The notes: generated by a model from the letters alone, not told the origin. Positions 2,151 through 29,701 are shown, counted from the first letter of the stretch. The stretch is 42,786 nt of DNA from an uncultured Faecalibacterium sp. (GCA_964491165.1 CAZBFI010000001.1:1-42786); one strand, 5' to 3'. Translations and numbers: made by a program.

Positions 2151-5100
2151 GGTGAGAACGGCTTCTCAAAGGGTATTGTTGCCATCTTTGAGGCTCTCGG
2201 ACTTACCACCGCTTGCATGAGCCAGAACAGCTTTGATAACTTCGTTTACACTGCTGCTCCCGGCACAGATCCCGCAAATTACACAAATGAGAATAATGTT
2301 GATGTTGATGAGCTCAGTAAGGGTACACTTCCTGACGGAAGAACAAAGAGATTCGCAGAAACAAAGAACTCTCCTCTCAAGCCTCTTATGGTCGCTATCA
2401 AGGAGCTTCTTATCGGTATGGGCGATGAAGCCGGTCTTCTTGATGCTCCTCTTACCGTTCTGTTCTCAAAGCTTCCCAACATTGCATATAACCTTTACAA
2501 CTTCAAGGGCGAAAACGGAAAGAATACCTGCAACTTCTCAATTGCAGTTAAGAACCTCATTTCCCCGATCACAAAGATCCTTGAAATCGTCGATCCCGTT
2601 CTCGCAAGAGTTGTAAATCTTGACATCAACGAGCTTCTTGACTCATTCCTTGATCTCGAATCACTCGTTAATAACCTCCTCGGCAGCCTTGTTGCAGAGG
2701 GTACAGAAGCTACAAGCATCCACATCTTTGACTTTGGTAAGCTTGCAGCAGATTCATCAACTGTTGACCGTAACGCTAAAACATATCGTCACGGTGCAGA
2801 TAAATTCACTAACTTTGTCGGTTCACCCGGTAAGCTTCTCATCACTCTTGTCAGAACAATTCTCACTAAGGACGTTGTTGACGCAGTCGGCCGTCTCATT
2901 GAGGGTATCTTCAACAAGGATACCGCTGACAAGACAGAAGAAGAGCTTGAAGCCGACCAGAGAGTCAGAAACATCATCAGCATGATCTCCACAAACCTTT
3001 GCAAGGCTGACACTAAGGGTGAGCTTGAAGGCGGCGCTTATGTTGACTATCTGACAAGTATCGTAATCGACATCTTGACAGACTATGAACCCGATAACGG
3101 CGAATTCTACTTCTATGAGATCATTAACCGTGTTGACGAAGATCTTATCAAGGCAGAAGATCAGATTGCCGCTATGGGTACAGTAGACAACCCGAAATAT
3201 GCTGTTAAGCATGAAGGCTATGATTGGGATGCCGTTCCCGCAGATCCGAATGATGCTTCCAAGAAGCTTTATACTCAGGATGAAGTTGAAAAGGCAATCG
3301 AAAACATCGACTATGTTGTTCGTAAGGCTGTTCCCGCAGTTTTTGCAACTCTTCATGATGAAGGTATCATAGGCGGAAATCTTGCAGAAGAGTTCAGCGG
3401 TGAAAACGGTCTTTGGGTACTTCTTCAGGATCTCTTAAATGGTCTCATCCTTAAAGATGATGCTCTTAACACAATTACTAACCTGCTTACAAATCTCTTG
3501 GGCGCTTCAGCCGGCTCATCAACAACCGGTATTATTCAGCAGGCTCTCAAGTCAGCAGGCTTTGACATCACATTCAATGCATTCCTTTATGAAAGCGACG
3601 GCTCTAAGTCAGCAGTCTTTGATTACCTCACCTACGGCTTTAAGAAGGACGCAAGCGGTGATCTTGTTCCTGCTGCATCAGGCGGATACGATATGTATCA
3701 GCTTACAGACGGCACAGAAGCTGAGCTTACATGGGCACAGGTTTACAAGAACCACAGCTACAATGTTTATGCTTTTGATGAAAACGGCGAGCTTATTCTC
3801 AACGATGATAACACACCCAAGCTTGCTGTCGTTCAGGTTCAGAATACTCGTCAGATCGGTGATACAACCGAGTACGAGTATAAGTACACAGATGCTTCCG
3901 GCAATATCCAGAAGGTATGGCTCGCAGAAGCAGGCAAGACAGAATATGTTGTAGGCACTGACACCTTCACTCTTACAGCTTCAACTGTTGATAAGATGGA
4001 AAACGACAAGCCCGTATATGAATACGCTCTTCTCACAACAGCTTATCCGCAGGAAACTCAAGACGGAAAGTATGTCTACACTTACACAGACAGCGACGGA
4101 ATCGAGCAGACTTATACCTCAGAGTATCAGCAGCTCAAGGTTCTCAAGAGCGCTGAAAAAGACGATCAGGGTAAGGATATTTTCTATACCCTTACGGCAG
4201 TATACTCAAAAGACACCACAAAGAAGCTCTGGACATGGGGCATTGATGAAGCTGCTGACTTCAGTGCAAAGAAGAATGCTCTTCTCGACATTCTTTGGAG
4301 TGTTCTCAGCCCGTTTGCAAAAATCTTCTCAACACTCTTTGCAGGCGATGCACTCAAGCTCTTTGACAATACCCTCAACATCGAGGGCGGTTACGGATAT
4401 AAAGATTATATCCTTCCGATAATGCGTGCATTCGGTCTCGACACAATCCTCAGCAAGCTCGGTGCAGAGAAGATTGCTGAAATGAACAAGGCTCATGCCG
4501 ATGGTGATAAGATCCCCGATGCTCTTATGACCAACGATGAATATCTTGCCCTTGTTTATAACAACAACGCAGGCAGTGCTGACCGTGAGCTTGATGTTGA
4601 CGGCTTGGGTCAGGCTGTTAAGCAGATTATCAACTATGTATTCTACTTTGTTGAAATCCTTGCAACATATCCCGTTGAAACACTTAGTAACGCACTTCCC
4701 ACACTCGCTTACTTCTTGTATGCAGACGGTTTGACAACTGTTGTAAGTAACCTTCTTGTTCCCCTCACAACCTTGACAAACAGACTCAGCGAGATCATCG
4801 ACCTTGACATTAACGCTCTCGGTGCAGGTCTCATTGATATGCTTGCAACAGGCTCATGGGAGAACTTCCAACTCGCACTTAACTCGTTCGTTTATATTGA
4901 TCCCGAAACCGGTAATCTTGTCACAAATCTCGACAAGGATATCTCATTGACTTACTCGCTGTTCACACTCTTGACAAACCTCGAATTTGACCTTTCGGGC
5001 ATCGTCGGAAGTGATGATATTTACGGCGGTAAGTACGGTATCGTTCTCTTCCTTGATAAGGACGCAGAGCATCATGCAAAGGCACTCAACAAGCAGGCTG

Positions 5101-8100
5101 ATGAGCTTGCAGAGGCTGATGCAACAGCTAATGCAGATCAGATCGCTCAGCTGCGTGAAGAAGCAAGAAAGAGCCGTGCAGATGCTTTGAAGAGCTTCCT
5201 TGGTTCAATCGTTGCTCTCGGTGATCCCGTCAGCGCTTATAAGAACGAAGCTAACGAATATATCTATAATAATTACGCTGATTATGTATATGTTTCCTCG
5301 AACGGTCAGGTTAATGTAAGCAAGTCAGAAGTTGTTATGTTCCTTCTTGACTTCATCTTTGAAAATCAGACCCTCAAGGAAATTATCGGCAAGCTCCTCG
5401 GTTACGATATCACCGATGAAAACACTGCCGATGCAGAACTCCTCGATGAAATCATCACAAATGTATTCAACAATCCCGAAGTGCTTGTTGACCTTATCGT
5501 AGCTCTTCTTGTTGACTACGATGTACAGAAGATTGTTGGTGTTGAGCTTAAAACTCTCGAGGCTGAAAATCACTTCCAGTTCTATGAAGATGCAGGTTAC
5601 ACTTCACATCAGGATGTTCTCGACCACAACAACAATCTTCCCGAAGGCGAAGAAAAGGTTACAGAGATCTCCCGTGTCAAGACCTCCGCAACTATCGACA
5701 ACCTTGATAACCTTGTTGGTACAATCCTCAACCTCTTCAAGTCTGAGCTTACCAAGGAGGGCGGTCTCTTTGCTCAGTTCGGCTTGACAGCTGATGATGA
5801 TATCACTCTTCAGGCTCTCGTTGACGCTATCTTTGAAACATACCTTTATGACGATAAGGGTCTTAATGGTATCATGGATATGCTCATCGGCTTGCTCGGT
5901 GGCGAAAGCTCTGCACAGATTGTCAACATCGTTCTTGATATTCTCAAGGGTGCAGGCTATGACCTTACACCTGCAAGCTTCAAGACTAACGTTCCTCAGC
6001 TTGCCGAAACAATCGGTGACGCTAAGAAGTGGAGCGAGGTTGTTAAGAACAACTCCAAGTATGAGTATGTTGTTAAGAACGAAGACGGTGATGTTGTTGA
6101 AACACTTTATGCTGATGAAGCAAAATTAACTGAAATCACAGTTGACGGTGTTGTTAAGACTGTTACACCTGTTATGATTCAACAGCAGGAAAGCCGTAAG
6201 GCAACAGATGCCGAAGGCAAAGAATACACCGAATATAAGTATGTATATTCCGTTAAGAATGAAGCCGGCGAGCTTGTAGATACAGTAGTATGGCTCAAGG
6301 AAGCAGGCAAAACCGAATGGATTGAAACTCCTGCCGATGAAGCAACCGGCACTGCTGAGGTTAAGCATGTTGTTGAAGCTGTTATGGTTGACACAACAAA
6401 GCAGAAGACAGCAGTTAAGATCAACGCAACATGGGGTCTCAAAACCCGTGACGATTTCGTTGATATGCTTTGGAATTGCATTAAGCCTCTCGCACCGTTG
6501 TTCGCAGCACTCTTCTGCGAGGGTGATCTGACAGTATTTGACAAGATCACAATCAAGGGCGCAGCAGGTTATGAAGGCTTTGTTCTTCCCTTGATCAACG
6601 CTCTCGGTATCCCCGTACTCAAGGCTAACAAGAATGCCGACGGTACATGGTCTGACGATACATCAACAGCAAATGAAAACGAAGGCGAGCTTTACCTTGC
6701 AGCAGATAAGTATTACACTTATGATCAGTACAAGGCAGCTGTCTACGGAGCTGACGATGTATTCGGCACAGAGGATGACAATGCAAAGATTATGCTCACA
6801 ACAATCACAGATGCTCTCTTTGCTCTGGTTGATTCACTCTGCGCAAGACCCGTTGCAACACTTCTCACAATTATTCCGTATCTTGCTCACTTCATCGAAA
6901 GTGACGGCATAGATATGATCCTTTCAAATCTTCTTGTTCCGATCACAACAATCACCACAATGATTGAAAAGATTTACAAGGTAGATCTTCTCGGTATTGT
7001 TAAGGATCTCCTCAGAGGCCTTATCAAGAACCTTAATGACAATGCAGGTCAGCCGACAGACAGCACTGACCCCGCAGCTCAAGGCACAACATCGGCAGCC
7101 GCAGCAGCTTATGTTCTCACAGCAGTTGAAAATGTTGAAAGAACAAGCGGCAAGTCCGGTTTTGAGACTTCTGTTGCAGCATTGGCTGAAACAAATCCGG
7201 CTCCCGCAATTGATTTGAGCGGTGATGACAGCTCGAACTATACCTTCAAGGATATTATCGTTGAGCTTGTCAACGGCCTTTCAATCAACGGCACTAAGCT
7301 TTCATCAATCATTGATGCCGATACAGTATTCCTTGACCTTGCTTCAATCGCATGGATTCCCAAGACTATTGTTGTAGATGGTGTAGCTACAGTACAGCCC
7401 TCTCAGAAGATTACTGTAACAATTTACGAAGACAGAGCAAGCGGTGTAGCTTCAAGATCCGAGGCAACCGAATACACTGTTGACCGTGAATCCGTTCTTA
7501 TCAACCTTCTCAACGATATCGTATTCACTCCGGGCATCCGTGATCTTATCGGCGGCTTGCTGAAATATGACTTCAGCGACGAAAAGATGACAACACTCAC
7601 TGAGGAAGATTCAGAGTATCTGCTCACAGTTCTTCTTTACGGTGTGTTTGAAGATCCCGAGGCTCTTGAAAGACTTCTTATCGACCTGCTCTCTTGGTAT
7701 GATCTCGAATATCAGGATGCAAGAGTATCCAAGAAGGACTTCTCAGACATTAACTCAACATCAACTGCAATTGATTATGACGCAATCGGTCTCGACAAGG
7801 CTCAGATGGAAAAGCTTCCCGAGGACTTCGACTCTCTTATCGCTAAGATAGTTCCCGCTGTTATCGGTATGCTTCCCGATGGCGCTCTCGGTGACCTCAA
7901 GCTTGAAGGTGCAAACCTTGAAGAGATGGTTCACAACCTCCTTGCCGATCTCATGATGGATAAGGAAGTTGAGGGCTCAACAACAGTTAAGTCCGGCCTT
8001 GCAACACAGCTCGTTCAGCTTCTCGTAAGCACACTCGGTGGCAATGCAACCGTTTCCATGATCGTCGGTCTCCTTCCCTCGATTGTTGACGGAGTTGACA

Positions 8101-11100
8101 TTGAGCTTAAGGACTTCAAGAAGGTTAACGCAGCGTTCAATGCTTACTTTGCTGACTATAACACATGGGCAGAAGCTTATGAGGGACTCAAGTCAGTTAA
8201 GAAGTATGTTGCTTCCACAGATTCCACAGCAGATGTTCCTGCACACGATGCAGACAATAATCTCTACGCAACAGATGCAAACGGCAAGCCCGTTGCAGAG
8301 TATGCACTTGACGAAAACGGCGCTAAGATTCCCGTTTACGCTAACGGCAATAAGGTAACTGACGATTGGGGCAGTGAATGGTACACATCAGCAGGTACAC
8401 CTGCAACAGATGACGAGCAGCCTCTCGAAAACACCTATGTTGTTAAGACAGCTGACGGCAAGATCGTTTACGGCTATCAGTATGAGCTTGTTCTTAAGGA
8501 TACCGATTCCTTCGGTGTTAAGAATTACGACGATATTCTTGAGCTTGTATCACAGATTCTCGCTCCCTTCGCACCTATCTTCAGATTCCTTCTCACAGAA
8601 GACGACCTCGTTCTTCTCGACGGTGTACATCTGACAGGTGGCGACGGCTACGACCGTTTCATCATTCCTCTGTTTGAGGTTCTCGGTGTTGATAACTATA
8701 TCGGCAGCGACAAGTTCCTTGACAAGCACGCTTTTGCGGCTCTTGATAACACTGCATTCACCGCAAAGGTAGTTGAATATATCGACGCAGTTATCTCAAT
8801 GGTTGTTAACACTCCGATTCAGACAATCGTTGACCTCGTTCCCGAGCTTGTATTCTTCGTCTACTCCGACGGTCTTGCACAGGCTGTTGAGCAGTTCGTT
8901 GCTCCCTTGCTTACTCTCATTGATATGGTCAATGACATTACTGCAAAGGAAATCGAAATTCAGGGCAGAGAAGATAAGCTTGTAGCACTTGATATCGTTG
9001 CTCTCATCACTGACCTTGTCAACAACGGTATCATGACACCGAATAAGCTTGCAGAAATTGACGGCTTCTACGGTGACAACGGACTTATCACAAGAGTCCT
9101 TTCCGGTCAGGGTCTTGAAGAGCTTCTTCAGGGTCTCCTCACCAATGCAAACACTTACATTTATGCTTACGAATACACTGTTCCCGCTGATTCCGCAGTT
9201 GAGGGTTCAACCGACACAGTTGTAACCGTATACCTTGACAGTGCTGAGCTTGATGGCACAGATTATCAGCCCGATAGCGAAAAGACTGGAACATATACTC
9301 TTACTGCTGTTCACGAAAAGAACAAGACTCCCATCAGTCTCGGTCTCGATAAGGACGCTGACGGAGTTGTTGATGCTGAGCAGATCACCGGCATCTTCAA
9401 GTGGCTCATTCAGAAGATCGCTAAGGTTGAAAAGGTTGACACTGTTCGCTACTTCGGTGCAGACGGCGCAGGTAACAACCGTAAGGTTTGGGGCGTTGTT
9501 GCCAACAGAGCCGACACTCTCGTTCAGGTTATTTCCGAAACACTTCTTGGCGGAAATATGATTACAAGCCTGCTCGAAACATTCGGTGTTAAGCTTGACG
9601 GCACAGTTCAGACAATCCTTGACGCTGTAACAGGCGAAAACAGATATGTAATCTTCCAGGTTCTCCTCAAATACTTCAACGAGTATGATGTTGAGACCAT
9701 GGTAATGGATTACCTGTCATTTGAAAAGGTTGAATATGCTTACGATACCTATGTTGAAGGCACAAACCTCACACAGCGTAAGCTCAGAAGAGCTATCAAG
9801 AAGCTCGACGGTTCAATCCTTACAGTAATTCCCGAGCTTGTTCCCATCCTTGCAGAAAATGAGCTTGTTAAGACTCTCCTTGAAAAGATTGGCGGTTACC
9901 ACGGCCAGAGCCTCAAGGATCTCGTTCATGAGCTTCTCGAAGCTTATGTATTCAACGATGAGACAATGAACAGCATCATGGGTCTGCTTGTAGGTCTCCT
10001 CGGTGGCGAAAGCCTTGAGGGAACACTTGCAACAGTTCTCCCGCTTGTAAGAGATATCGTTGACATTGATATCACACCTTACGGCTTCTATGAGGCTACT
10101 TCATCTGATGCAATCAAAGCATACATGAAAGAAGCCTTTGATGCGTTCCCGTCAGCGCCTGTTGTTGACGGCGACGGCAATCCCGTTCTCGAAAGCGACG
10201 GCACTCCCAAGCTCACAACAATTGAGAATGACTTCACATGGAAGGATCTCGCTGACTATTACACAAAATATGTTTACACATACAATGAAGTTACAACAAC
10301 AACAAAGTATGAGTACACTTACGAAAAGGACGGCGTTACCGAGCATTACTATGTTGAATCCAAGATTGAAGATACAACTAAGCTTGTAATCACAATCGAC
10401 GGTGTAGATTATGCTCTCACCGCATCAATGAACGGTGAAAATCAGGTAACTAAGGACTTCTATTCCTACAACACAATTTCTAAGTACAGCTCAGATTCGG
10501 ATCTCAACGGCACACCGGTTGAAGGTGTTGACGGTAAGACATGGTTCGCTTATGAGCAGGCAACTGATGAAAACGGCAATCTCCTTTGGTACGACGAAGC
10601 TAATGGTATCCCGACAGCTAAGACTGTTGATGTTACCGATGAAAACGGTACTGTTATCGGTACAGAAATGGTTCGTGCAACAAGAGTTAACGCTCTTAAT
10701 GGCGAAGAAGCATTTGATTGGGGTATTGATTCAGCTGAGAATTACGAAGGCAGAAAGGACGCATTCATTGATGTCTTTGCCGGTATCCTTGTACCTCTTG
10801 AGGGTGTTCTCAACTTCCTTCTCAGAGGTGAATCTCTCAGAATTCTTCCCGACGAAAGCGGCAACGGTGAAGTTCTTGAGTTCTACGGCAACAACGGTTA
10901 TGACAATGTTATCGTACCTCTCTTCAAGGCTCTTGCAGTTGACCAGTTCGGCACAATAATGTCAACAGATGAATATGTTGCAGGCAAGAATTCGGCAGTT
11001 ACTCTCACAGCTATCACTGACGGTATCTTCACAATCCTTGAAGCCCTCACTGATGGACCGATCGAGTATCTCCTCACTCTCCTTCCCTCACTTTCATATT

Positions 11101-14100
11101 TCATCAGCTGTAACGGTCCGGAAATCATTCTGAACAACCTTCTTTCACCCATCCTTGCTCTCCTCAATCTTGCAGATCCCATCGTCGGTGATCTTCTTGA
11201 CGATCTGCTCGGCAAGACACTCAGCGGAGTATTCGGTGCTTACATGCCCGATGACATCAAGTATGAAATTGCAACCGATTATAAGTCACCCGTATACGCA
11301 GAAGTTGAAGAGGGTGTTGACGCTGACGGCAATGCAATTATGGTTAAGGTTCCCGCAACAGATAACGGCAAAACTGTTATCTTCAAGGATAAGACCTATT
11401 ACATCACCGCTGGTGACGGTAATGTAATCGACGGTGAATATGTTGTTACAACCACAACAGATGCAGAAGGTAACACTATCCCCGTATTTGAAACTTATAA
11501 ATCATACGCTCTTACAGATCTGTTGAAGATCTGCGGCGAGAACGGTGACAACCTCATCAAGATTATCAACGGTCTTGTTGGTCCTCTCCTTCTCGGCAAC
11601 GATGCAACAGATGCAGAAATCGCAGCATTTGAAATCCTTCCTGCAACCTTCTTTGAAGCTTATGCAGAGCATGCAATCACAATCAACAAGGCTGGTGCCG
11701 GTGCAAGCTACTATTACTGGTACGAAAATGCAGAAGGCAAGCTTGTTAAGATTGCTCAGGATTATTACGATGTATCAATGGGCGAGATTAAGGCAGCACG
11801 CTATGTTGTTGACTGGTTCAAGGTTGACATCGCAGACTCGGCAGTATATCTGCTCGACAGCGTTCTTTCAGAATCACTTCTCAGAGAAATCGCAAAGCTT
11901 GCTAACATTGATGTTGATGATTCAAGCAACATCCTCGGTGTAATTCTCAAGAATCTCATCGAAGGCAAGTTCAACGGCCTCGTTGTTGCAGACATCATCA
12001 CAGCGCTCTTTGAAAATTACACAATCACTTACAATGAGCTTTACGGCGAATACATCGTGCCGAACCATGATCACCTTAACAATATCAGTGCAGATGATCA
12101 GGCTAAGGCTGAAAGAGTTCCCGCACAGCTTGACACCATCATTGAAGAAGCACTTCCCATCGTGGCTCCCATCCTCTCGGATCTCTTTGCTCCCAAGGAC
12201 GGAAAAGAACCCACGATCATCAACGATATCTTCGATAATTATGCAACAATCGCCGATGACGAAGCAGTTGCAGACCTTTACGAAATCGTTGAATATCTCC
12301 TCGATGACATGATATGGTCTGACGAAATGGTCAACACCATCGCAGCTCTCATCGTTAACCTCGTCGGTGACGGCGGCGTTATCGGTACTGTTCTCGATTA
12401 CGTCGGAGTAACAGGCATTAAGCTTGATCCTCAGAATTATCTTGCAACAGTTAAGAAGGCTTATGGCGCAAAGGCTGAAATGAACGAGGCTGTTGCAGCT
12501 CTCGCAGGCATTATCGGCACTGCTGAAACATGGGCTGATGTTGTCAAGAATGACACAACTCCGCTTTATGCTTATGAGTATGTATCAGGCAAGAACGATA
12601 AGGATGAGGACATCAAGACTACCGTTTACCTTGCAGATGCAAGCCTTGACGGTGAAGCTTACACAGTCGCAGAAGAGGATTATATCCTTGCAGCTGTTAA
12701 GGACGCTGACGGCAACCATGTTGTTAAGGCTGAATTTAATGTAGACGGTGTAGCTGACATCACTTGGGGCGTTAACGCTGCAACTGATAAGAAGGATGCC
12801 TTCATCAAGGCTCTTGCAGTTATCGTTGAACCTCTCTTCCCTGTTCTCCAGCTTGTGCTTCAGGGCAAGATCCTCACACTCGTCGGTCACGACAAGGCAA
12901 GCTATGAGCCGGTTAACATGTTTGAATACGATGCTGACGGTGCAGCTCATAAAGTTATCGACGACAGCAGAACAGGTAATGAAATCGGTAACGGTTACAT
13001 TGAGCTTATGGGCGTCAACGGCTACGAGGAGCTTCTCGTTCCCATTCTCGACGCAGTAGGCGGACTTGAGGCATTCGGTGCTTACAGTGCCGACAACACA
13101 GACGGCATTATGACCGCTGCTGAGTTCTGCTCAATCAACAACGCTTATGATATGCTTGCATACATCGTAAATGTAGTATTCGGATTCGTTAATAAGCTTG
13201 TAGCAAATCCGTTCGAATACCTTGCAACATATCTTCCCTCACTCCTCTACTTCATCGGTTCAGACGGAGTATACAACGCAATTCAGTCTGTTCTTCAGCT
13301 TGTAAACGCTCTGATCGCAATCGTTGAGCCTCTCATCGGTTCAGATGGCATCAAGCTTTCAGACACACTTTCATTGCCTCTTGATCTTAAGATGCTTAAG
13401 CTTGAAGATACAGTCGTAATTGAAAATGTCTTCAATGCTGAAACAGGCGTGAACGAAGAAAAGAAGACAACGATCAAGGGTCTTTGCTCGATGATCAATG
13501 ATCTTCTTCCCGGCAGCACGGCATTCAAGCTCACAAAGGATATGATCCTCAAGCTTGCCGGCTACCTCGGTGAATACAAGGTTATCGACACCGTAAGATC
13601 AACTGCTTCAACTGCACTTGTTAAGTACGATGCAGAAACCGGCTCGATGGTTTATGTCGATAAGGATGGCAATGTCATCAGCGATGCAAATCCGGCTGAA
13701 AAGAACAAGATCACAACAATCGTCGGTAACACTAAGTACACTCTCACAGGTCTCCTTCAGTTTGCTCTTGCAGACGGACTTGTAGGTAGTATCGTTGATA
13801 CCTCAACAGTAACAGGTATCCTCAAGACGATCCTTGACAATGTAATGGGTGAAGATGCAACTGCTAATGTTTCCGCAGTTATCATCAAGCTCCTTAATAA
13901 GTATGTAGTTGAATATAAGGCAATCGAAGAACCTGCTGAAGCTCTCAGCAATGTCGGTGTTGATTACACCAAGTACGGTGTAGAGCATGCTGACGTTCAG
14001 ACTGCTCTTCAGAATCTCCAGAACCTTATCCCCGGTGTTCTCAGCCTGCTCAATCTCGGCAGTGTTCAGGATCTCGTTGCGGATAACCTCTACACAGATA

Positions 14101-17100
14101 AGCTCGTTAACGGCATTATTAATCTGTTTATCGGTCTGCTCGGCGGCTTCGATGAAAACACCTGGAACCTTGTTGTTGACATCCTCGGCTATGTAAGAGA
14201 TATCGTCGGTATCGACATTGATATCACACCTGCTCACTATGCTGAAAACGCAGTCCTTGCTGACTTCATCAACGCTGTTGAAAAGAGAGTCGATGAACAA
14301 GGCAATGAGCTTGAGCTTACATGGGCAGATGTCGCTAAGCATTACACCAAGTACGAATACAGATACAAGGTTGAAGATGCTAAGCCGGCAACTGAAACAG
14401 AAGCAGCAACAGATGCTAAGTATGTAACAGTATACTTTGCAAATGCTGATCTTGACGGACAGAAGCATATCCCCACAGAGGGCACTTATGCAGGTAAGGA
14501 ATTCACACTTGAAAAGGTTGAAACCGTTAAATATGAATACAAGTACACAGTTGTGGAAAATGACACATCTGTTGAAAAGACCTTCGTTTCCGATGAGAGC
14601 GATCTTACAGAATACAAGGTTGGCGATGCAACTTACGTAGTAACTTATGTCGGTGAGGTCAGAACTCACAACAATAAGGTTGAGTCTGACTTCGTATGGG
14701 GTCTTGCAGACATCGCAGAACTTAACGGTAAGGCTGATAAGCTTGTTGATATCCTTGCAGCTCTTCTCAGTCCTCTTGACGACTTGCTCGCACTTCTCCT
14801 TTCCGGTGGTGTATACGAGTCTGACGGCACAGAATATGGTGACTCACTCGGTGCATTCAAGGAAATCAACATCATGGGTGGTAGCGGTTACAACTACGCT
14901 GTTATCCCGTTCCTTGAGGCTCTCAGCGTTCCTGCTGCAAGCATCAAGTCACAGGCTGAATATGAAGCATCAATCGAAACAGACGGTGCTCTCGGTTATA
15001 TTCTCAAGACAGTTCTTCATACTGTAAACGATAACCTCGACACTCCGCTTGACTTCGTTCTCGGTCTCTTCGCAAATCTTGCATACACTGTTTCTAAGAA
15101 CGGACTTACAACAATCGTCTCCAACCTTATCGCTCCGTTGAGTGAGCTTATTAAGGCTGTTGAATGTGTAATCCCCGTAGCTATCAAGATTGACCTTATG
15201 GCTCTTATCGACGGTGGTTCAATTGCAGAGATTCTCCTTGGTGATGAGGTTGAACTCAAGAATGCAGAAGTCGGTCTCACTCTTGACCTCGACGGTGACA
15301 CTCTTGAAGCTCTCGTTGCTAAGCTGATTGCAAAATACCTTTCAGGCTTTGACATCATTGTTGACTTCGAGGATATTGCTTCCAAGACAGCAAAGCTTGA
15401 TGAGACAGGTAACATCATTTACAGTGATTCCAAGGTTGATCCTAAGTGGGATAACTGTGTCGGCACTCCCGGCAAGAATATCGAGGGTGATCCCTCAGCA
15501 ACTATCGTTACATTGTTGACAATGTTAATAACTCCTGAGAATGTTGAGGCTCTCCTCAAGATGCTCAATGTTGACCTTAGCACACTTCCTGCTGAGCTTG
15601 TCACAATCATCAACAATGCAATCGACAATCCCGATGCTCTCATCGGTGCAATCATTAAGCTTCTTGCTTCAAACTATGAGCTTGATTCAGCTCTTACAAT
15701 GATATTCTACTTCCTCGGTGAATCCGAGTATGATTACAGCTCGGTTGACGGCGGAAAGAACGCAGTTGAAAAGGCAATCGCTAAGTTTGACAAGATGGTT
15801 AATAACCTCATTCCGAAGATCCTCAAGCTCCTCGGTAATGATCTTGAAACACCCGTTGCAATCATCGCCGATATCTATAACGGACTCGGTGAAGATGCAG
15901 CAAACGCAAACATCAAGACAATTGTTGATTACCTGCTCAATGACCTCGTATTCAACGACAAGATGATGAATACTCTCCTTACTCTTGTTGTAGGTCTGCT
16001 CGGCGGTATGGATGCAAATACATTTGCAACAGTGGCTAACATTGTCAAGGAAGTCCTTCACATTGATATCACTCCCGCAGGTATTGCAGCTATCTCCAAG
16101 ACCGAAGGCGGCAAGATCGCAGCATTCATCGAAAGCCATGTTACCGACGAAACAACACTCGACGAGCTTACATGGAATGACATCACAGCAGCACATCAGT
16201 ATTACGAATACAGATATAAGACTAAGGACGCAGTCGGCACAGAAGGCTCTGAGGGTTATGTTGCAGCAGAGTATGCAACAGTACACTTTGCAGATGCAAA
16301 TCTTGACGGCACGGACTACACAGTTGACTCCAAGACCTATAAGCTTGAAGCAGTCGTCAACGACAAGGACGAAAGAGTCACAAAGACTGTTCTTGATGAA
16401 GCATGGAATGTTACCGATAAGGATTCCTTCCTCGGTATCCTCTATGAGATCACAGCAGTCATCGAGCCTCTGCTTGCATTCCTCTTCAAGGGTGAGGACA
16501 TCAACATCATTATTGATGATCTCCATCTTGTAGGAAACAACGGTTACGAAAACGCAATCGTTCCTCTTGCAAAGGCATTGAACATTGACATCAACGAAAA
16601 TGCAGGTTCATTTGAAAATGCAAATGATATGCTCAAGGAAGTTATCAACGGAATCTTCGGTCTTGTTGAAAAAGTCGAGGCAGCTCCGATTTCAACAATC
16701 CTCGAGCTTGTCGGTACAGTATCGTACTTCGTTGCAAACAACGGTGTAGAAATCGTTCTTAAGAATCTCATCACACCTGTTACAAGCCTTGTCAGCCTCT
16801 TCGGTGAGGTTGTCACAATGGACGATGTTAACGCACTTCTCAAGAAGTATATCAACATCAGCCTTGACGAGATAACAGGTATCGCAGGTGAAGACGGCAG
16901 CAAGCTTGTATCACTCATCAACGGACTTCTTCCCAAGGTTGAGGTTGTCGGTGAGGACGGTGCAGTAAGAGTTATCGAGCCGCTTCCCGCTAAGTTCTTT
17001 GAAATCATGAGCAGCTACGCTATCAGCTATGACAGCCTTACAGCAGCTCAGAAGAATGATGAGAATATCAGAAAGCTCGCAGTAAACAACTGGTCAGTCA

Positions 17101-20100
17101 AGAAGGCAGATGTACTTATGTATCTTCTTGCAACAGTATTTACAGATGACTTCCTGACTCTCATTGCAAAGCTTGCCAACCTTGAAGCAGGCACAATGAT
17201 CGGTGATGTTGTCCTCGGTCTTGCAGGCGATGAAGATGTTGTTATCAACCTCATCTCAATGCTTCTCAACGAGTACAAATTGGTATACAACAAGTATGCT
17301 CAGATTGACATCACAAAGATCAATGTCGATCCCAAGGCTCCGCTTACAGATGAAAATCTCAAGCAGGCAATTCAGGCAATCGACGGCCTTGTTCCGGCTC
17401 TTATCGGTCTGTTCGTTAAGGATGCAGATTCACTTGCCGGCTTGGTTGAAAACCTTGTTGCAGGCGCAGACCTCGGCAATCTCCTTATGAACATGCTCGT
17501 TCCCGTTCTTTCGGGTCTTGACCTTGAAGAAATTCTCGGCTATGTCAAGGAATTCTCCAACCTTGATATCAAGCTTGATGCATCTGCATGGGCTTCGGCT
17601 GATTCTTCAATCGCAGCATTCATCAAGGCAGCAGATGACCTTGACGGTAACGGCGAAATCTCATGGGCAGAAGTTGAGGCATTCTATACTCAGTATGAAT
17701 ACACTTACACAGTTCCCGCTGTCGGTGTTGAAGGTGAAGAAGGCTATGTTGCAGCTGAGACTGTAACAGTATTCAAGCCCGCAGGCACAACAACTATCAC
17801 CGTAGGTGAAGGCGAGAGCGCTAAGACTTATGACCTTGTTGCTGTCAATAAGTACGAATACACTTATGAAGCTGTTAAGGCAGACGGCACAACAGAGACT
17901 AAGACAATCGTTCTTGACAAGGCAGGTCTCACTGAAACCACTATCGGTGACGAAACCGTTCAGCTCACTTACTCAAAGGCAATCCAGAACAGCAAGATGG
18001 TCAGCGAATACAACTGGAACATTAAGACCTTCGATGATCTTAAGGACTTCGTTGTTGAGCTTCTCAAGCCCTTGGATGTCGTATTTGAGATTCTCCTTTC
18101 GGGTGGCGAAATCGTCGCAATTCCCGATAACAAGCCCGATGTAGAACCCTATCCCGCACAGATCACAATCCGTGGCGGTGAAGGCTACAACTTCGCTATC
18201 ATTCCTCTGTTTGAGGCTCTCGGTGCAACCGGACTCAAGACTCAGGCAGAATATGAGGCACAGGCAGCAGCCGACGGTTCACATCTCAAGTATGTTCTCG
18301 ATGTACTCTTCGCAGAAGTTGAAACGATTCTTGACGCTCCCATAACAGAGCTTCTTTCAAGACTCGCAAACATCTTCTACTTCATTGGAAACAACAGCAT
18401 TAACACTCTTGCAGACAACCTGCTTGCTCCGGTTAACACTCTCCTTGATAAGATTTACGAGGTATTCCCGATTTCTATCGCTATTGATGTTAACAAGCTC
18501 GGCGTTGCAGGCGCAAGCGTACTTGACACTGAATTCGGTACAGCTAAGAAGGGACTTCCCTCAGGCATTACCGTAAATGTTGAAGCAACCGGTCTCGCAA
18601 CTCTTCTTAACGACCTTCTTGCAGGCATTGAAATCAACGGTGCTAAGCTCGGTCTCTCACTTGAGCTTAACTGGATCGAAATCGCCGCTAAGATGGCTAA
18701 GACTGCTAACGCAGACCAGCAGAGCGTAACAGGTGCAGCAATTGAGAAGTTCGCTTCCTCAATGGATTACGATGCATACGAAGGCGTTATCGGCACAACC
18801 GAATACGCTGACGGCAAGTATTACAACATTAAGGGCGATGTTGTTGATACCTTCGTAACACTTCTTCAGGTTATCCTCACATCAGACAACACAGAGGCTA
18901 TTAAGAACCTCGTAACAGGTCTGCTTAAGGACGCTCCGACAGAGGTTAAGGATATTCTCAACGATATCCTTTCAGATCCCGATGCAATCGAGAAGCTTAT
19001 CGGTGTAGTAGTTCTTCTTCTCACCGGCGAAAGTGATCTCAGCGGTTATCCGTTCGAGTTCGTTTATAAGTTCCTCGGCAAGCTCGACTTCAATTACAGA
19101 TCAAATGAAATTGAATCGGCAATCGGTAAGTTTGACAAGATGATCGCAAGAGAGGCAGTTTCCGTAATTAAGCTTCTCGGCACTCCCGCAGCAGATGTTG
19201 CTGAAGCTGACTACTCCTTCTTCAACAAGATGGCAGTGGCTCTCGACGATGGCGATTCACTTGCAGACATCGTTGCATGGCTCCTTGGCGAGTTCGCATT
19301 CACAGGTGCAAACTTCGACGGACTCATGGCAATCATCAATAATCTCCTTGCAGATGCTATCACAGCAGAGCTTGCAGACATTATTTCAACAATTCTTCCC
19401 ATCAACCTCATGCCGTATGCATACGCAAATGCATCTGGTAATGCACAGCTTATCGCTTATGTCGCTAAGGCAATTCCTGCCGGTGCAGACGAAGACGCTA
19501 AGAATGCAGTAACATGGGCTGATGTAAGAAATGCAAACGCTACAAGCACAACAGTTGACGGCAAGACAACATGGACTTATAACGAGTCATGGAATGTTGA
19601 AGGTAAGGACGCATTCGTCAATACTCTCCTCGACCTTCTCAAGCCGCTTAACCCGATCCTTGACTTCCTGCTTACAGGCAAGAACCTCAGCTTCACAATC
19701 GACGGTGTCGAAATCTGGGGTGCAGACGGATATGCAAACGCTATCGTAACTCTCCTTAACGCTCTTGGCGCTAAGCAGTTCGGTATCGATGTTCCCGCAA
19801 CCGCAGAAACCTCAACAGAAGCTATCGGCTACATCATCGATGTACTTCTCGGTAAGGATGTAACTGAGCTCAAGGGTGAACCCGCAATCGAAACAACTGT
19901 TCATGTCAATGGCTTGGTAGATGTAATTTGCGAAGCACCGCTTACCTCAATTCTCACAATTGTCGGTAACCTCAGCTTTGTAATTGCAAACAACAACCTT
20001 GCTCCGTTGCTCAAGAATCTTCTTGCTCCGGTACTCGGTATCGTTGAGCTTGCAGAATCTCTCATCTCAATGGAACAGCTCGATGCACTCATCGCAGGTC

Positions 20101-23100
20101 TTGTAAACATCACTCTTCCCAACGGTAAGCCTCTCAACATTACCAACATCATCAACATTGCCGGTGAAGGCGGTGCAGATCTTGTTGCTCTTATCAACGG
20201 ACTTATCGGCGGCATTAAGGCTTATGAGAAGATTGACGGCAAGCTTGTTGAGTATACTCAGCAGCAGGTTGAAGCTGATACTTCAGGCGCAACCTATGCA
20301 GAAGTTACGGTTAAGGACGAAAACGGTCTTGAAAGAACTATCTACTGTAAGGTTCTTCAGGTTATCAACATTCTTCCCGACGACTTCTTCGTTGACCTTG
20401 CTAAGTATGTCGTTGAAGACAGTAAGCTTAACGGCGTTGCCGTAACAACAGTCGGAAACGATGTAGACGAATGGACAATCAATGTTTCAGACGCTTTGAT
20501 GTATGTTCTTTCAATGGTTCTCGATTATGACTTCTTCGAGACAATTCTCAAGAAGGTCGGACTCGATCTGAGTCAGGGCATCGGTGAGACAATTCTCACA
20601 ATGGCTGACAAGGAAAATGAGCTTATTGACATCATTGTAATGCTCCTGAATGATTACAAGGTTGTATATTCAAAGATTGAACAGCCTGTTCTCACAGATG
20701 CAACAACTCCGTACAGCTCATTCGGTAAGGATGAAAGCGGTAAGGATCTGCTCAACAATGGAAACACATCAAAGGCTATCGCAGCTCTTGATCCCATTCT
20801 CAACACGGTAATTGCAATGCTTGCCGACGGCAAGACACTCGGCGGTCTTGTTAACGGACTTGTTGCAGATGCCGATCTTGCAAACCTTATCATGAACGCT
20901 CTTGTTCCCGTACTTTCAGGACTTGACCTCGATGCAATCCTCAAGTATGTCAACGAGCTGACAAATATCAACCTTACAACTCTCGATCCTGCACTTTGGA
21001 CAGAGAATGACAAGGTTAACTTCGGTTCACAGCTTAAGAACTTCATCAATGCAGCAGCAGACCTTGACGGTGACGGCAAGCTCTCCTGGGCAGAGGTTGA
21101 AGCATACTATACTCAGTATGAATACACATACACCGTTCCCGCAGTCGGTACAGAAGGCGCAGAAGGTTATGTTGCAGCTAAGACCGAAACAGTCTTCAAG
21201 CCCGCAAACACAGCAGAAATCACTGTTGGCGAGGGCGAAGGTGCAAAGACTTATGCACTCACTCCGGTTTATACCTATGAGTACACCTACCTTGATGCAC
21301 AGGGCAATACTCAGACCTATTACTCAGCAGAGAAGAACCTGACTGTTGCTGATGTTGACAACAACGCTGAAACACCCGATGTTGCAGTAGCTTATGTTGA
21401 CAAGGCTCAGAACAGCAAGATGCTCAGCGAGTTTGACTGGAAGATTGACGATCTTAACGATCTCATTCCTCTTGTCTGCGATCTGCTCCAGCCCTTCGAC
21501 ATCATCTTCCAGATTCTCCTGTCAGGTAAGCCCATCATCGCTCTTGAAGACGAAACAGGCAACCGTGCAGATGTCAGAATCATGGGTGGCGTCGGCTACA
21601 ACTATGCAATCATCCCGCTTCTTGAGGCATTCGGAGTTTCCGAGCTTAAGACACAGGCTGAATATGATGCACAGGTAGCTGCTGACGGCTCATCACTCAA
21701 GTATATCCTTGAGGTTCTCATCGGTGAAGTTAACGATATTCTCGAAACTCCGCTCAATGAGCTTCTCTCAAGACTTGCTAACCTCTTCTACTTCATCGGC
21801 AGTGACGGTATCAACACCATCGCCGATAACCTGCTCGCTCCTCTCAACACTCTCATTGCCGAGGTTGACGATCTCTTCCCGTTGGCAATCAGAATTGATG
21901 TTGCAGCAGACAGCATTCTCCAGACTTACCTCGGTAAGGCACACGACGGCGTTCCGGCAGGCATCACAGTCAATGTTTCCGGTGCTGACCTTGCAAAGCT
22001 TATTAACAGCTTGATTGATGAAATCGTAATCGGTTCAACAACAATCAATCTCAGCCTTGACCTTAACTGGACAGCACTCGCTGCTAAGATGGCTAAGAAG
22101 GATACAGACGGAAAGATTCTCACAACAGGTACAAAGCAGGTATACAATATCGGCACTGTTAAGAATCCGGAGGCAGCTGACCTTGTAAATCTTACAGGCG
22201 ATGCAGCTAACGCAATCGTAACGCTCCTTGACACAGTTCTCACTAAGGACAACTGCGAGAACATTTATAAGCTTGTTGACAGTCTCCTTCCCGCAGACTT
22301 CGATGCAACAATCAGAGGTCTCATCATGGATATCGTCGGCAGTGAACAGTCCATTAAGGGCGTTCTTGCAGCAGTCGTTCTCCTGTTGACCGGTGCTTAC
22401 GATGTCGAAACTCTCGACTATGTATTCAAGTATCTCGGCGTTCTCAGCTTTGCAAAGGCTGACGATGCTAAGACAGCAATCGCAAGTCTCGATAAGGCAC
22501 TCGTTAAGGCAGTTCCCGTGATTATTGAGCTTCTCGGTAAGGGACAGACAGACCCGAACAATATCCTTTACAAGCTTTACAACGGCACAAAGGATCTTGA
22601 GGGCGGTTCAAGCCTTACAAACATTGTTAACTATCTGCTTAATGACCTGCTCTTCACAACTGATATGATGAGCACAATCACAGGCGCACTTCTCGGTATC
22701 CTCAAGGGTCTCAGCGCTGACCTTGTCGGCACACTCAAGGATATCCTCGGAATCGATCTTGCTCCCGTTGCATTCGCAGCAGCATCCGGTAATGCTGAGC
22801 TTATCAGCTATGTCGGCAATGCTGAAACATGGGCAGAGGTTGCAGCCGCACACGGCACAGAAGTTCCTGTATACGAAGCAGACGGTGTAACTCAGGCTAA
22901 GAATGAGGACGGCTCACCGAAGACTAAGACAGTCTACGATCCCGTATTCGCAAATGCTGACGGTAAGAACGCATTTGTCGGCGCTCTTCTTGACCTGCTC
23001 AAGCCTCTCGAAAGCATTCTCGCATTCCTTCTTACAGGCGAGGATCTCACAATCACAATTGAGAATAACGGTGAAAAAGCAACTCTTACTCTCAAGGGTG

Positions 23101-26100
23101 GTAACGCATACGAAACAGCTATCGTTCCGCTTCTCTTACAGGGTCTCGGACTCGAAGAGATAAAGACCGGCACTAACAAGTCCGTTGTTAACGGTGCAAC
23201 TGCTGTTGACAACGCAAACGATGCAATCAAGGCAACTCTCGATTACATTCTCGTTGACCTTCTCGGTGCAATCGAAAAGGCTCCGATTTCAACAATCCTC
23301 ACAGTTGTTGCAAACCTCGGCTACTTCATTGCAAACGACGATGTCGCAGTTGTTATCCAGAACCTTATTGCTCCGGTACTCGGTATCGTTGATGCACTCG
23401 GCGGTGTAATCTCAAGAGCTCAGCTTGACGCTCTCATCGAAGGTCTTGTTAAGGTAGAGCTTCCCAACGGTAAGAAGCTTAACCTTACAAACATCATCAA
23501 CATCGCAGGCGATAACGGTGCAATACTTGTCGATCTCATCAACGGCTTGCTTCCCTCAATCGAAATGAAGGATCCTGCAACCGGCGAGGTAATCGGTGTT
23601 GTTAATGCACTTCCCAACACATTCTTTGTTGATCTTGCAAAGGCAGCCGTTAAGGTTGTTAAGCCGACAGGTAGCCTTGCAGTCGGAACAGCTGTAACAG
23701 AGTGGACAACAGATAACGGCGGCGCTATCATGTATGTTCTTTCAACAGTTCTCACAACTGACTTCCTCAACATTCTCTGTGATATGCTCGGACTTGAGCC
23801 GACAGACGCAGAGGGTAATGAGAACATGGTTTACAACATCATCATGTCACTTGCTGACAGTGAAGATGCAGTAATCGACCTTCTCCTCATGCTTCTTAAC
23901 AGATACCTCGTTGAGTATAAGGGCTACAACCTGCCTGTACTCGATAAGATCGATGTTAAGTATTCATCAGAAGCCGACCACAAGCAGTTCAATCAGGTTA
24001 TCTCCAACCTCGACGGACTCATCCCCGTTCTCCTTGATCTTCTTATCAAGCCGGACGAAAACGGAAATAAGGCTTCAAATCTCGCAGATATCGTTTATCC
24101 GTTGTTCGTCAAGGACGATATCGCAAACATGCTCGTAAGTGCAATCGTTAAGCTTCTCGCAGGTCTTCCCGCTGATACACTTACCATGATTGAGGGTTAT
24201 GTAAACGATCTTACAAGCCTCAAGAACGGTAGCGACGCATCAGGCAACGAAACCTTCAGCATTGCACCCGCAGCATTCAAGAACGGCAAGTTCGGTTCTA
24301 AGCTCGCTGCTTATATCGGCAACGCTCAGACATGGAATGATGTCTGGATGGCTCACAGTGCAGAACAGGTTAACGCTGAGACAGGCGAAACAGAAAGAGT
24401 TGCAACAGCTTACGCTTGGGGCATCTCAAAGACTGATGATCTCATCAATCTTGTTTCCGACTTCTTAATGCCTCTTGACTGTGTACTCAGCCTTCTCCTT
24501 CAGGGCGGTATGGTAAGAGCTGACTTTGACGCAAATGACCCGAACAACACCTTCGTCGGTAAGACACTCTCCGTATTCGAAGAAATCGCAATCAGCGGCG
24601 GTAGCGGTTACAACTACGCAATCGTTCCCTTGCTTGAATTGCTCGGCATCACACCTAAGACTCAGGAAGAGTACGATGCTTATGTCGCAGCACATAACGG
24701 CAGCACCTTGCATTATGTACTTGTTGCAATCTTCGATAAGGTTGACGAAATTCTCGCAGCTCCGATTGAAAATGTGCTTGATATGCTTGCTAACATCTGT
24801 TACGCACTCGGCACAGGCAGCATTGCAACAATCGTTGAGAATCTCATCGCACCTATAAATCATGTGATTGAGGCAGTTGATCCCATCTTCCCGATCGCAA
24901 TCCCGATTGATATCGGTGCACTCATCAACGGCGGACAGCTTGAAACTTACCTTGGCAAGTCACATGAAGGCATTGATGCCGGCATTACCTTCAAGCTTGA
25001 GGGTAACGACATTGCAACGCTTCTTGAAAACATCATCGCAGGCATTGCAATCGGTGGCACAGCACTCAATCTCTCAGTTGATTTTGATTGGATCACTCTT
25101 GCACGCGCCGCAGCAGCAGATGCAAACGGTGACGGTAAGGTTGACTTCAACAGATCGGTAATGAATGGTAAGTGGGATATCTACAACGGCGACGCTTATA
25201 AGAACCTTGTTGCAGATCCCGGTGACACATTCGTAACCTTAATCAAGACAATTCTCACTAAGGAGAATTGGGAAGCTATCAAGAAGGCACTCAACATCAA
25301 CTTGGGCGACTTCGACAGCATCATTGAAGATATCATCAATGATCCCACATCAATCATCGGTCTTATCGGTCAGCTTCTCAACGGCGGTTCAGTAAATTAC
25401 ATCCCCGTTCAGAACAGAAAGGTTGAAGTTAAGAGCTATAACTACACAACCTACCTGTACATGACAGAGCAGAATGCCGATATCATCGCAGCAAATATTG
25501 ATAAGCTCATCAATGATATCCTTTCAAAGACAGACTTCGGCTCACTCAAGGGTCTTGTCGGCGGCTTACTTACCAATGACCTCGCATCTAACCTTGTCGG
25601 TATGATCACCGGCTTGCTCGGCGGCGACAGCATCAGCGGTATCCTCAGCACAGTCGCAGGTCTCACTTGCGGTGAAGACGCAATCCTCGTTGTATACGAC
25701 GCAGCAGGCAATGTTCAGCCTCTCAATCTTGACCTTACAGTTCAGGGTTACGCTGCAAAATATGCAACATACAAGAACGCAAATGTTGAATTTGCTAAGA
25801 GACTTAAAGCAGCAAACACATGGGCAGATGTTGATGTATCAGGCATCAACTGGGGTGTAAACGGCACAGTCACAAGCTTTGCTAACGCACTCGCTTCAAT
25901 CCTCAATCCTCTTAACAATGTTCTCGAGCTTCTTCTTATCGGTGAAGGCAAGACACTCGGTGTACTTCCCGGCAAGGACGAAAACGGCAACTATGTCAAG
26001 GATGAAAACGGAATGCCCACTTGCGTTGCAAACATCAAGGGTGGCAACGGTTACGATTACGCAATCATTCCTCTCCTCGAAGCATTCGGTCTCAAGGCAA

Positions 26101-27598: not shown

Positions 27599-28447
27599 TC
27601 AAGGCTTGTCGATTATCAGCTTGTTTGTCGTGATGATTTCAGCACCGAAAAGCACCATCACATCTTTGTAAACTGTGTTGTCAACTGTCCATGCTGCCAA
27701 GCTTAAACCGGCTTGCTTTGCAGCCTTCCAACCCTTTATGCTTTTGTAGAAATTTAAATACTTGAAATTGACAGTGTTGACACCGTTTTCAACGCACCAG
27801 CTCACATCGTCGGGCTTAATCACACTGACAAGGAGCATGAGGTCGGCATTAGGATCAATTTCCTTATAAAGTCTTAAATATTCCCTTTCAAAAGAGATGA
27901 TGCTGCATTTTTCCGTAAGACCGTATTTGTCGATAATCTCTTTCAATTCCGGCAGACGCTTTGTGTCGCAGCTTTTTATCTCGATTATCGCAGCCGTTTT
28001 GCCCTTGCTCAAGGTCTCGGCAGCTTCTTCAAAGGTCGGGATTTTCAGCTCGCCGTAGCTTTCGATTCCGTTACCGCTGTCAAGCTTGAATTTTTTCAGC
28101 TCCTCAAGAGTGTAATCCTCAACCTTTCCGCTTCCGTCTGTCATGGCATCAATCGTGTCATTGTGAATTACAACCCACTTTCCGTCTTTTGTTGTGTGAA
28201 CATCAAGCTCACAGCCGTCATAGCCGTATTCCATGGCAAGCTCAAATGCAGGAATTGAATTTTGCGGAGCAAGACTCGAAAGTCCTCGGTGAGCAACCAT
28301 AAGAGGCTGCTTTTCGGTGTGACTGGAGATTGAAAGATTGTCGCTTATTTTCGGAATATACATGTGCGGAATCATAATGAGTGCTACTGCAACGGCAAGC
28401 ACGCAGATTATCGCAACGAGCGTTTTTGTTTTTTTACTTTTTTTCAT
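27599..28447 (-). CDS. membrane-anchored glycerophosphodiester phosphodiesterase (GDPD family)
   Basis: 282 aa. N-terminal TM anchor (LVAIICVLAVAVALIMI). GDPD signature VAHRGLSSLAPQNSIPAFELAMEYGYDGCELDVHTTKDGKWVVIHNDTID. RBS AAAGGTGA lies upstream. Confidence 0.85.
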   Translation of the reverse strand: MKKSKKTKTLVAIICVLAVAVALIMIPHMYIPKISDNLSISSHTEKQPLMVAHRGLSSLAPQNSIPAFELAMEYGYDGCELDVHTTKDGKWVVIHNDTIDAMTDGSGKVEDYTLEELKKFKLDSGNGIESYGELKIPTFEEAAETLSKGKTAAIIEIKSCDTKRLPELKEIIDKYGLTEKCSIISFEREYLRLYKEIDPNADLMLLVSVIKPDDVSWCVENGVNTVNFKYLNFYKSIKGWKAAKQAGLSLAAWTVDNTVYKDVMVLFGAEIITTNKLIIDKP

Positions 28448-28450
28448 CAG

Positions 28451-28504
28451 TTTTCACCTTTTCTTTAACTTGTTTTTTTCAAGTATACTATTAAAGGTGA
28501 AAAG
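28451..28504 (-). promoter_or_regulatory. intercistronic inverted repeat overlapping the GDPD ribosome-binding site
   Basis: Plus-strand TTTTCACCTTT (28451-28461) is complementary to AAAGGTGAAAA (28493-28503), an 11-bp pairing. On the mRNA the 3' arm contains the AAGGTGA Shine-Dalgarno of the GDPD gene. An inner ACTTG/CAAGT hairpin sits in the loop. Confidence 0.3.
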
Positions 28505-28513
28505 ATTCAAGCC

Positions 28514-29648: not shown

Positions 29649-29701
29649 ATTAAGTACATTAGCTAAGAATGAAAACTTTCAGTGAAAGGAAGAATAACTA
29701 T

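Follow-up and report, generated by a model that had tools for sequence, protein, structure and literature searches.

Giant surface proteins influence the attachment of gut bacteria to their hosts, to food particles and to each other. Ebh of Staphylococcus aureus possesses a signal peptide, a presumed giant rod of tandem helical FIVAR-GA repeats, each of about 126 amino acids (aa), and a C-terminal membrane anchor; nested insertions of beta modules are, to our knowledge, not a described feature of this protein. In flagellin, the conserved helical D0 and D1 regions bracket a hypervariable central beta-rich insert, which is exposed at the surface and ranges, from one homologue to another, from nearly nothing to hundreds of residues. 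Giant1-3 of Apilactobacillus kunkeei are extracellular proteins of 3,000-8,000 aa that form a rod of previously undescribed parallel alpha-helical repeats, with an N-terminal beta-solenoid, C-terminal DUF5776/SH3b-like wall-binding domains and no transmembrane (TM) anchor (PMC12863079). Giant proteins of Oscillospiraceae and Clostridia of the gut carry RCC1, Listeria-Bacteroides-repeat or YG-repeat beta domains and are predicted to be extracellular, without anchors (bioRxiv 10.1101/2023.11.21.568195). The present analysis concerns a giant open reading frame (ORF) in 42,786 nucleotides of DNA from an uncultured Faecalibacterium sp. (GCA_964491165.1 CAZBFI010000001.1:1-42786), the whole of which is here called the window. 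Its product is built of tandem units that share an insertion site at one defined loop, occupied in many of them by a small Tyr/Thr-rich, putatively beta-stranded module, here named YEY.

Repeat units of the giant protein

The ORF was first called at 45-27125 on the plus strand. Ahead of the ATG called at base 45 the frame stays open as far as base 3, so that this codon is not where the protein really starts; the first residues read correspond to mid-unit positions in the alignment. Because the frame is open from base 3, the gene is cut at its 5' end by the window and the real protein is longer than 9,026 aa; further units lie upstream of the window start. The ORF is conserved in five loci of metagenome-assembled genomes (MAGs), with a ratio of non-synonymous to synonymous substitution (dN/dS) of about 0.2 in its scaffold.

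3..27125, plus strand: giant ORF, at least 9,026 aa read; partial unit 0, 14 tandem units and a C-terminal tail, with the 5' end outside the window

Units were cut at the conserved tryptophan of motif 1 and then aligned, which gave 14 units in addition to the partial unit 0. Each possesses a scaffold of about 470 residues; with their cassettes removed the units are 453-667 residues long, those of units 7-14 about 470. Motif 1 (T-W-x-[DE]-V) and motif 2 (W/F-[GN]...D-x-F) form a pair that brackets a segment in all 14 units. An earlier reading of the DNA, made from sequence only, had described motif 1 as [TS]W[AN][DEQ]V, conserved in every unit. This strict form occurs nine times (0.03 expected, from 500 shuffles) and accounts for nine of the 14 units, but the other five read TWGNV, KWSEV, TWAEA, TWKDL and TWNDI. 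Motif 2, given there as W[GN]..D.F, was found in all units, although its first residue is F in units 4 and 12. The core that follows is present in 14 copies in the window protein, with the consensus W-G...D-x-F...L-x-P-L...L-L-x-G...I-x-G-G-x-G-Y-x-x-A-I-x-P-L-x-E-A-L-G...P...L-P-N-L-x-Y-F-I...N-L-L-A-P.

The natural phase of the unit was taken from P0002, a distant homologue of 899 aa in which a signal peptide precedes two units and a TM anchor closes the chain at the C-terminus. The N-terminus of mature P0002 matches a helix about 110-150 aa upstream of motif 1 in the giant protein, so that the cassette site is a loop within the unit; the same position rules out the cassettes as linkers between units. 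In its natural order the unit begins with a helical pre-segment, which closes with motif 1; the cassette site comes next, and the conserved core and a post-segment follow, as in unit 9.

17343..19097, plus strand: unit 9 in natural phase (aa 5767-6351); helical pre-segment of about 107 aa, motif 1, cassette of 113 aa, motif 2, core and post-segment

Units 7-14 (13980-26867) alternate between two subtypes, units 7, 9, 11 and 13 being 33-50% identical and units 8, 10 and 12 being 34-43% identical. This alternation suggests that the C-terminal half grew by duplication of blocks of two units.

Canonical EF-hand-type loops are found between predicted helices in unit 9 (DLDGNGEISWAE, 17637-17672) and unit 11 (DLDGDGKLSWAE, 21060-21095), where motif 1 forms the exit helix of the EF-hand-like loop, right at the base of the cassette. 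The Pfam model EF-hand_5 matches the giant protein at 21.1 bits, below its cutoff of 25.9, and canonical EF-hand sites, whose loop of 12 residues reads DxDxDGxIxxxE between two helices, number just four in the family, in three proteins. As the canonical loop is confined to units 9 and 11, the idea that motif 1 serves every unit as an EF-hand exit helix is ruled out.

Cassettes and the YEY module

Cassette length was measured from the V of motif 1 to the W or F of motif 2.

1986..2006, plus strand: unit 1 cassette site, 7 aa, minimal state
3744..4235, plus strand: unit 2 cassette, 164 aa, at least one YEY module
6042..6431, plus strand: unit 3 cassette, 130 aa, two YEY modules
8178..8510, plus strand: unit 4 cassette, 111 aa, of another type with D-x-N-G hairpin strings
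10251..10718, plus strand: unit 5 cassette, 156 aa
12543..12764, plus strand: unit 6 cassette, 74 aa, one YEY module
14334..14696, plus strand: unit 7 cassette, 121 aa, two YEY modules
16185..16403, plus strand: unit 8 cassette, 73 aa, one YEY module
17676..18014, plus strand: unit 9 cassette, 113 aa, two YEY modules; the cassette modelled
19527..19589, plus strand: unit 10 cassette site, 21 aa
21099..21437, plus strand: unit 11 cassette, 113 aa, two YEY modules, the second absent in orthologues L001 and L002
22842..22946, plus strand: unit 12 cassette site, 35 aa, 25-33% identity in orthologues
24345..24416, plus strand: unit 13 cassette site, 24 aa, with an extra hairpin of 18 aa in orthologues L002, L004 and L005
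25833..25850, plus strand: unit 14 cassette site, 6 aa, minimal state

The segment thus ranges from 6 to 164 aa across units 1-14, in agreement with the widely differing lengths reported in the sequence-only reading. The contrast in composition that it drew between cassettes and scaffold is also borne out: relative to the rest of the protein, the cassettes are enriched in Tyr (2.5x), Thr (2.1x), Glu (1.6x) and Lys (1.5x) and depleted in Leu (0.30x) and Ile (0.28x). Its positions are exact, 3729 being the T of TWAQV, 17661 and 21084 the S of SWAEV, 25818 the T of TWADV and 1968-1985 the MTWGNV before unit 1. The strings it quoted were located as well: KYEYRYKV in unit 7, YEYTYTV in units 9 and 11, YEYKYTD and YVYTYTD in unit 2, and the two forms of VWL[AK]EAGKTE[YW] in unit 2 (VWLAEAGKTEY) and unit 3 (VWLKEAGKTEW).

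A profile seeded on the unit 8 cassette recovered full copies of a module of about 55 aa in units 6, 7, 8, 9 and 11, plus an off-site copy in unit 4. The profile of the second module also recovers the first and adds copies in units 2 and 3, at the two VWL strings. When the cassettes of paralogous units and of orthologues are aligned, a first module is seen, joined in some by a second, and then a conserved lead-in to motif 2 (NSKMxSEFxW). The pattern common to the modules is YEYxY, a loop, xTVxV, a turn and TYxL, and the Tyr ladder of the cassettes is conserved in the alignment. Profile matches and alignment point to a single YEY module of 40-55 aa with four putative strands, found once or twice in each of at least eight units. 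It is confined to the clade of the giant protein, and a word-indexed search found it in no other protein context. The off-site copy of unit 4 is present also in the relative P0004.

9162..9320, plus strand: off-site YEY module of unit 4, about 217 aa after motif 2; YAYEYTVPADS...TVVTVYLDSAELDGTDY...TYTLTAV, independent E = 1e-18

The first two YEY strands are joined by an acidic loop, A-V-G-T-E-G-E-E-G-Y, in the cassettes of units 8, 9 and 11 (for example, 17712-17741). This loop is strikingly conserved in paralogous and orthologous cassettes and is a candidate functional site for contact with a cation or ligand.

Predicted structure

Unit 9 was modelled with AlphaFold2 from an alignment of the 14 paralogous units, and its cassette alone (122 aa) from 22 sequences. 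The unit model, with a mean predicted local distance difference test score (pLDDT) of 72 and a predicted template modelling score (pTM) of 0.65, contains helices at residues 3-115, ten strands at 116-220 (pLDDT 80-88) and helices again from 230, with small beta elements and low-confidence stretches at other variable loops. A conserved helical scaffold carrying a beta cassette, as proposed in the sequence-only reading, is what this model predicts. The isolated cassette gave a mean pLDDT of 94.6 and a pTM of 0.76, with the strand pattern that it has in the unit. The cassette is therefore predicted, on good model evidence, to be an autonomous beta domain; and the junctions of 6-12 aa in some units and homologues indicate that the scaffold does not need it.

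No structural relative was recovered by Foldseek for the unit 9 model (best E 0.22) or for the cassette model (best E 1.8 and template modelling score at most 0.25 in PDB; best E 0.31 in BFVD), and the cassette profile matched no PDB sequence (best E 0.5). In these searches the cassette showed no likeness to Ig-like, FN3, lectin or other known beta-domain folds.

The family and its probable surface anchoring

The protein belongs to a large family without a name. An exhaustive profile search with the unit core (profile A1) recovered 613 cluster representatives at E <=1e-3 and 340 at E <=1e-30, clusters being defined at 50% identity; word-indexed searches had given just two, one and two matches, and it was the exhaustive search that revealed the family. 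Members contain 2-15 units, most representatives carrying 4-15 cores, and the longest protein among the 150 listed has 7,691 aa. The shortest members, P0001 and P0002, possess exactly two units. Scanning the whole giant protein with Pfam and NCBIfam gave no match at or above any curated cutoff, a PDB sequence search with it gave none, and a Pfam scan of ten family members found no domain at or above curated cutoff. No name was found in any source for the clusters of ten members, and literature searches found no paper on the family, but analogous giant proteins only.

A signal-peptide-like N-terminus is present in 112 of 154 family sequences. At the C-terminus, 101 of the 154 carry a basic amphipathic motif (...FFQKIxxFFKNLF), and 13 a TM helix with a basic tail. 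The tail of the giant protein has a helical hydrophobic moment of 1.82 (0.62 +/- 0.32 in shuffles). It probably serves as a membrane anchor or as a sorting signal. The LPXTG pattern of sortase-anchored surface proteins ([LIV]P.[TSA]G) is absent from the last 300 aa.

27051..27122, plus strand: C-terminal amphipathic basic tail TLNWFQRLLQKIKDFFAKIFSIFK, putative membrane anchor; motif common to 101 of 154 family sequences

Insertion history and selection

The history of the site was followed through the gap that separates the profile match of motif 1 from that of the core, measured in 668 paired units.

Units outside the close clade (n=596): median gap -16 (matches overlap); 77% at <=12 aa, 11% at >=50 aa
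Nine closest representatives (n=59): median gap 69 aa; 8% at <=12 aa, 57% at >=50 aa
Giant protein (n=13): median gap 112 aa; 8% at <=12 aa, 69% at >=50 aa

The short junction prevails outside the clade, and this distribution shows the filled loop to be the derived state. The long inserts of distant members are likewise poor in Leu and Ile (about 0.5x) but have no sequence relation to the cassettes.

Orthologues were found in five loci of Acutalibacteraceae and Oscillospiraceae MAGs, four of which span units 7-14. Cassette positions are kept in them, with pooled identities of 58-62% for the cassettes and 72% for the scaffold. By the Nei-Gojobori method, cassette dN is 0.32-0.36 and scaffold dN 0.19-0.20, a ratio of 1.7-1.9, and dN/dS is about 0.24-0.29 in cassettes and 0.19-0.21 in the scaffold, values that are approximate with dS at 0.94-1.43, near saturation. 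The greater variability expected of the cassettes in the sequence-only reading is thus found in identity and in dN, but dN/dS stays far below 1. Cassettes evolve faster than the scaffold under continued constraint, that is, purifying and not diversifying selection. Between the paralogous units 9 and 11, the cassettes are 60% identical and the scaffolds 50%.

Insertions and deletions of at least 8 aa between orthologues cluster at the cassette site and at loops 88, 132 and 215-245 aa downstream of motif 2. Two loci have lost the second module of unit 11, and three have gained the hairpin of 18 aa in unit 13. Units of the same subtype carry cassettes of 121, 113, 113 and 24 aa in one case and of 73, 21 and 35 aa in the other. 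Cassette copy number changed after the units were duplicated, and it still differs between species.

Other variable loops

The scaffold was defined as the alignment columns filled in at least 12 of the 14 units (393 columns), and residues outside it were counted as variable.

Scaffold columns 103-114: cassette site, 1,019 of 3,193 variable residues (about 32%), in three adjacent runs
After scaffold column 264: loop with 318 variable residues, at most 99 aa, in unit 5
After scaffold column 312: loop with 213 variable residues
After scaffold column 290: loop with 199 variable residues
After scaffold column 24: loop with 189 variable residues
After scaffold column 89: loop with 175 variable residues
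After scaffold column 179: loop with 152 variable residues
After scaffold column 150: loop with 120 variable residues
11256..11540, plus strand: second-site insert of unit 5, about 95 aa, beta-like, after scaffold column 264

The fixed insertion site claimed earlier is indeed the largest variable site, but it is not the sole one, as at least seven other loops vary by 20-100 aa and a YEY copy lies off-site in unit 4. A non-circular scan for windows poor in Leu, Ile, Met and Phe assigned 1,034 residues to the cassette site and 540 to other positions. In orthologue L005, an extra beta-like insert of 31 aa, QKTSADGKTYAYIVKGDETKTEIYLDKAGLT, lies opposite aa ~4462 of the giant protein, about 221 aa after motif 2 of unit 6; the secondary site, too, gains YEY-like sequence between species.

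Functional interpretation

The giant protein is most likely a surface fibre tethered to the membrane, in which Tyr/Thr-rich beta modules are an optional part of the units and have a binding or structural role. The window would hold most of the gene for a giant secreted protein of one of the gut Clostridia, from a lineage like the Acutalibacteraceae; complete relatives of the protein start with a Sec-type signal peptide. Since relatives end in an amphipathic helix or in a TM helix with a basic tail, the chain is most likely tethered by its C-terminus to the cytoplasmic membrane, from which it would project as a long fibre; its tandem units, largely alpha-helical, have about 470 scaffold residues apiece. 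A single loop, about 110-150 residues into the unit and between a short helix ending in T-W-x-[DE]-V and a long helix starting with W-[GN]-...-D-x-F, would act as a permissive hot spot for insertion. In the clade of the giant protein this loop would have been filled unit by unit, with one or two detected tandem YEY copies plus other beta-like sequence in the longest cassettes, and two copies together are predicted to fold alone into a beta domain of about ten strands. We infer that the modules lie on the outside of the fibre and function in binding; they may offer a multivalent Tyr/Thr-rich surface to glycans, other cells or matrix, and would not be antigenic decoys. The explanation in its entirety, from tethered fibre and permissive loop to YEY modules and outward multivalent binding surface, is held with moderate confidence.

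Several points weigh against it. The Pfam and NCBIfam scans of the giant protein and the Pfam scan of ten members revealed no ligand, no signature of a binding site and no known adhesin domain. The N-terminus of the giant protein lies outside the window, so that secretion is deduced from its relatives. The cassette was modelled for unit 9 only, from shallow alignments (14 and 22 sequences), and the models were read by pLDDT, pTM and strand pattern. Finally, the site is not unique, beta-like inserts being found also in other loops.

Of the competing explanations, the main one takes the cassettes as structural struts or spacers that stiffen or lengthen the fibre, protect it from proteases or space its units, with no ligand of their own. 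Purifying selection and the position kept in orthologues agree with such a role, as do the greater likeness of the unit 9 and 11 cassettes than of their scaffolds, the lack of a match to any known binding fold and the EF-hand-like loop at the cassette base in these two units. However, junctions of 6-24 aa occur in the same fibre and most of the family has no cassettes, so the scaffold manages without them; whole modules come and go between species; and exposed sheets rich in Tyr and Thr are commonly met at interaction surfaces. That the role is structural alone is considered fairly unlikely. The cassettes might instead be functionless, nearly neutral in-frame expansions, produced by duplication or slippage and tolerated by a floppy loop. 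The site and several other loops are prone to insertion and deletion, the module is confined to one clade with no other protein context found, and cassette dN is 1.7-1.9x that of the scaffold; but a dN/dS of about 0.25, an identity of 58-62% kept across species whose synonymous sites are near saturation, a fold predicted at very high confidence and a conserved Tyr ladder make neutrality improbable.

The suggestion in the sequence-only reading that the modules are antigenically variable fared worst. Knobs that escape recognition by antibodies or phages would suit a carrier presumably exposed at the surface, with non-synonymous divergence faster than that of its scaffold, module-level insertions and deletions among orthologues and a short unit 12 cassette that is only 25-33% conserved. 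Yet dN/dS (about 0.24-0.29) reveals no non-synonymous excess, the cassettes retain their positions, and mostly their lengths, across five MAG species, and paralogous cassettes are no more diverged than scaffolds, those of units 9 and 11 even less so. At the divergence available antigenic variation is not supported, and it is regarded as very improbable.

Should the modules of the proposed fibre bind to glycans or cells, avidity would be tuned by how many of them a fibre carries. One polypeptide holds the loop empty, with one module, with two modules and with up to 164 aa, and so preserves a record of domain insertion and amplification. The module itself, small and confidently predicted, rich in Tyr and Thr and with little aliphatic core, is a possible compact binding scaffold for engineering. 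A more far-reaching and rather doubtful proposal is that this widespread, undescribed family of giant Clostridial fibres, its unit of ~470 residues having no structural relative, harbours in one lineage a new autonomous fold, YEY, born in situ in a scaffold loop, then multiplied through nested duplications and carried to a second loop. If true, it would be a natural instance of domain birth and of 'loop display' on a scaffold of repeats, whose intermediates, at 6, 21-35, 73, 113 and 164 aa, are all present in one protein.

Neighbouring genes

The rest of the window is ordinary bacterial chromosome, with genes for GDPD, an SH3 plus C39-like peptidase, GH3, GH2, an MFS transporter, DUF554, EamA, an aldose epimerase and an NMT1-like binding protein. 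A block at 27599-33361, containing GDPD, the SH3/C39-like peptidase, orf237 and GH3, is inverted in L001, L002, L004 and L005 (about 13.3-19.3 kb in each locus); the inversion spans about 6 kb directly adjoining the giant gene on its downstream side. Since all four long orthologous loci carry these four genes the other way round, the gene next to the giant one differs, and functional coupling with a downstream neighbour, whether the SH3 plus C39-like peptidase or GDPD, is ruled out. Long antisense ORFs (154-288 aa) inside the giant gene are presumably by-products of repetitive sequence and codon composition, not genes.

2823-3356, minus strand: antisense ORF
13803-14669, minus strand: antisense ORF
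15687-16526, minus strand: antisense ORF
16544-17008, minus strand: antisense ORF

Comparison with known systems

Like Ebh, the protein is a giant of Gram-positive bacteria with tandem alpha-helical repeats in a presumed rod; a signal peptide such as that of Ebh would be expected from its relatives, and its C-terminal tail is a putative membrane anchor. It differs in its unit, which has about 470 scaffold residues instead of about 126 aa and includes small beta elements; and FIVAR (PF07554), GA (PF01468) and DUF1542 (PF07564) were all absent from the giant protein and ten family members in a Pfam-A hmmscan at curated cutoffs. It shares with Giant1-3 a giant helical-repeat structure and a cell-surface role inferred from prediction, but matches none of their families, has an amphipathic or TM C-terminus in its family and carries its beta modules inside the repeat units. 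As in flagellin, conserved helices flank one defined loop with a beta-rich insert of variable length. Unlike in flagellin, this scaffold is repeated at least 14 times in one polypeptide rather than polymerised, and its inserts are under purifying selection; Pfam matched neither Flagellin_N nor Flagellin_C in the giant protein. The RCC1-type giants are likewise giant, repetitive, predicted extracellular proteins of mammalian-gut Clostridia, but RCC1, Listeria-Bacteroides-repeat and YG-repeat domains are absent from the present family (Pfam, giant protein and ten members). With 613 clusters but neither a name nor a model in Pfam or NCBIfam, and with no structural relative, the family marks a large blind spot of annotation. 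The protein is in kind a giant repetitive Gram-positive surface protein, and in family and fold an undescribed one.

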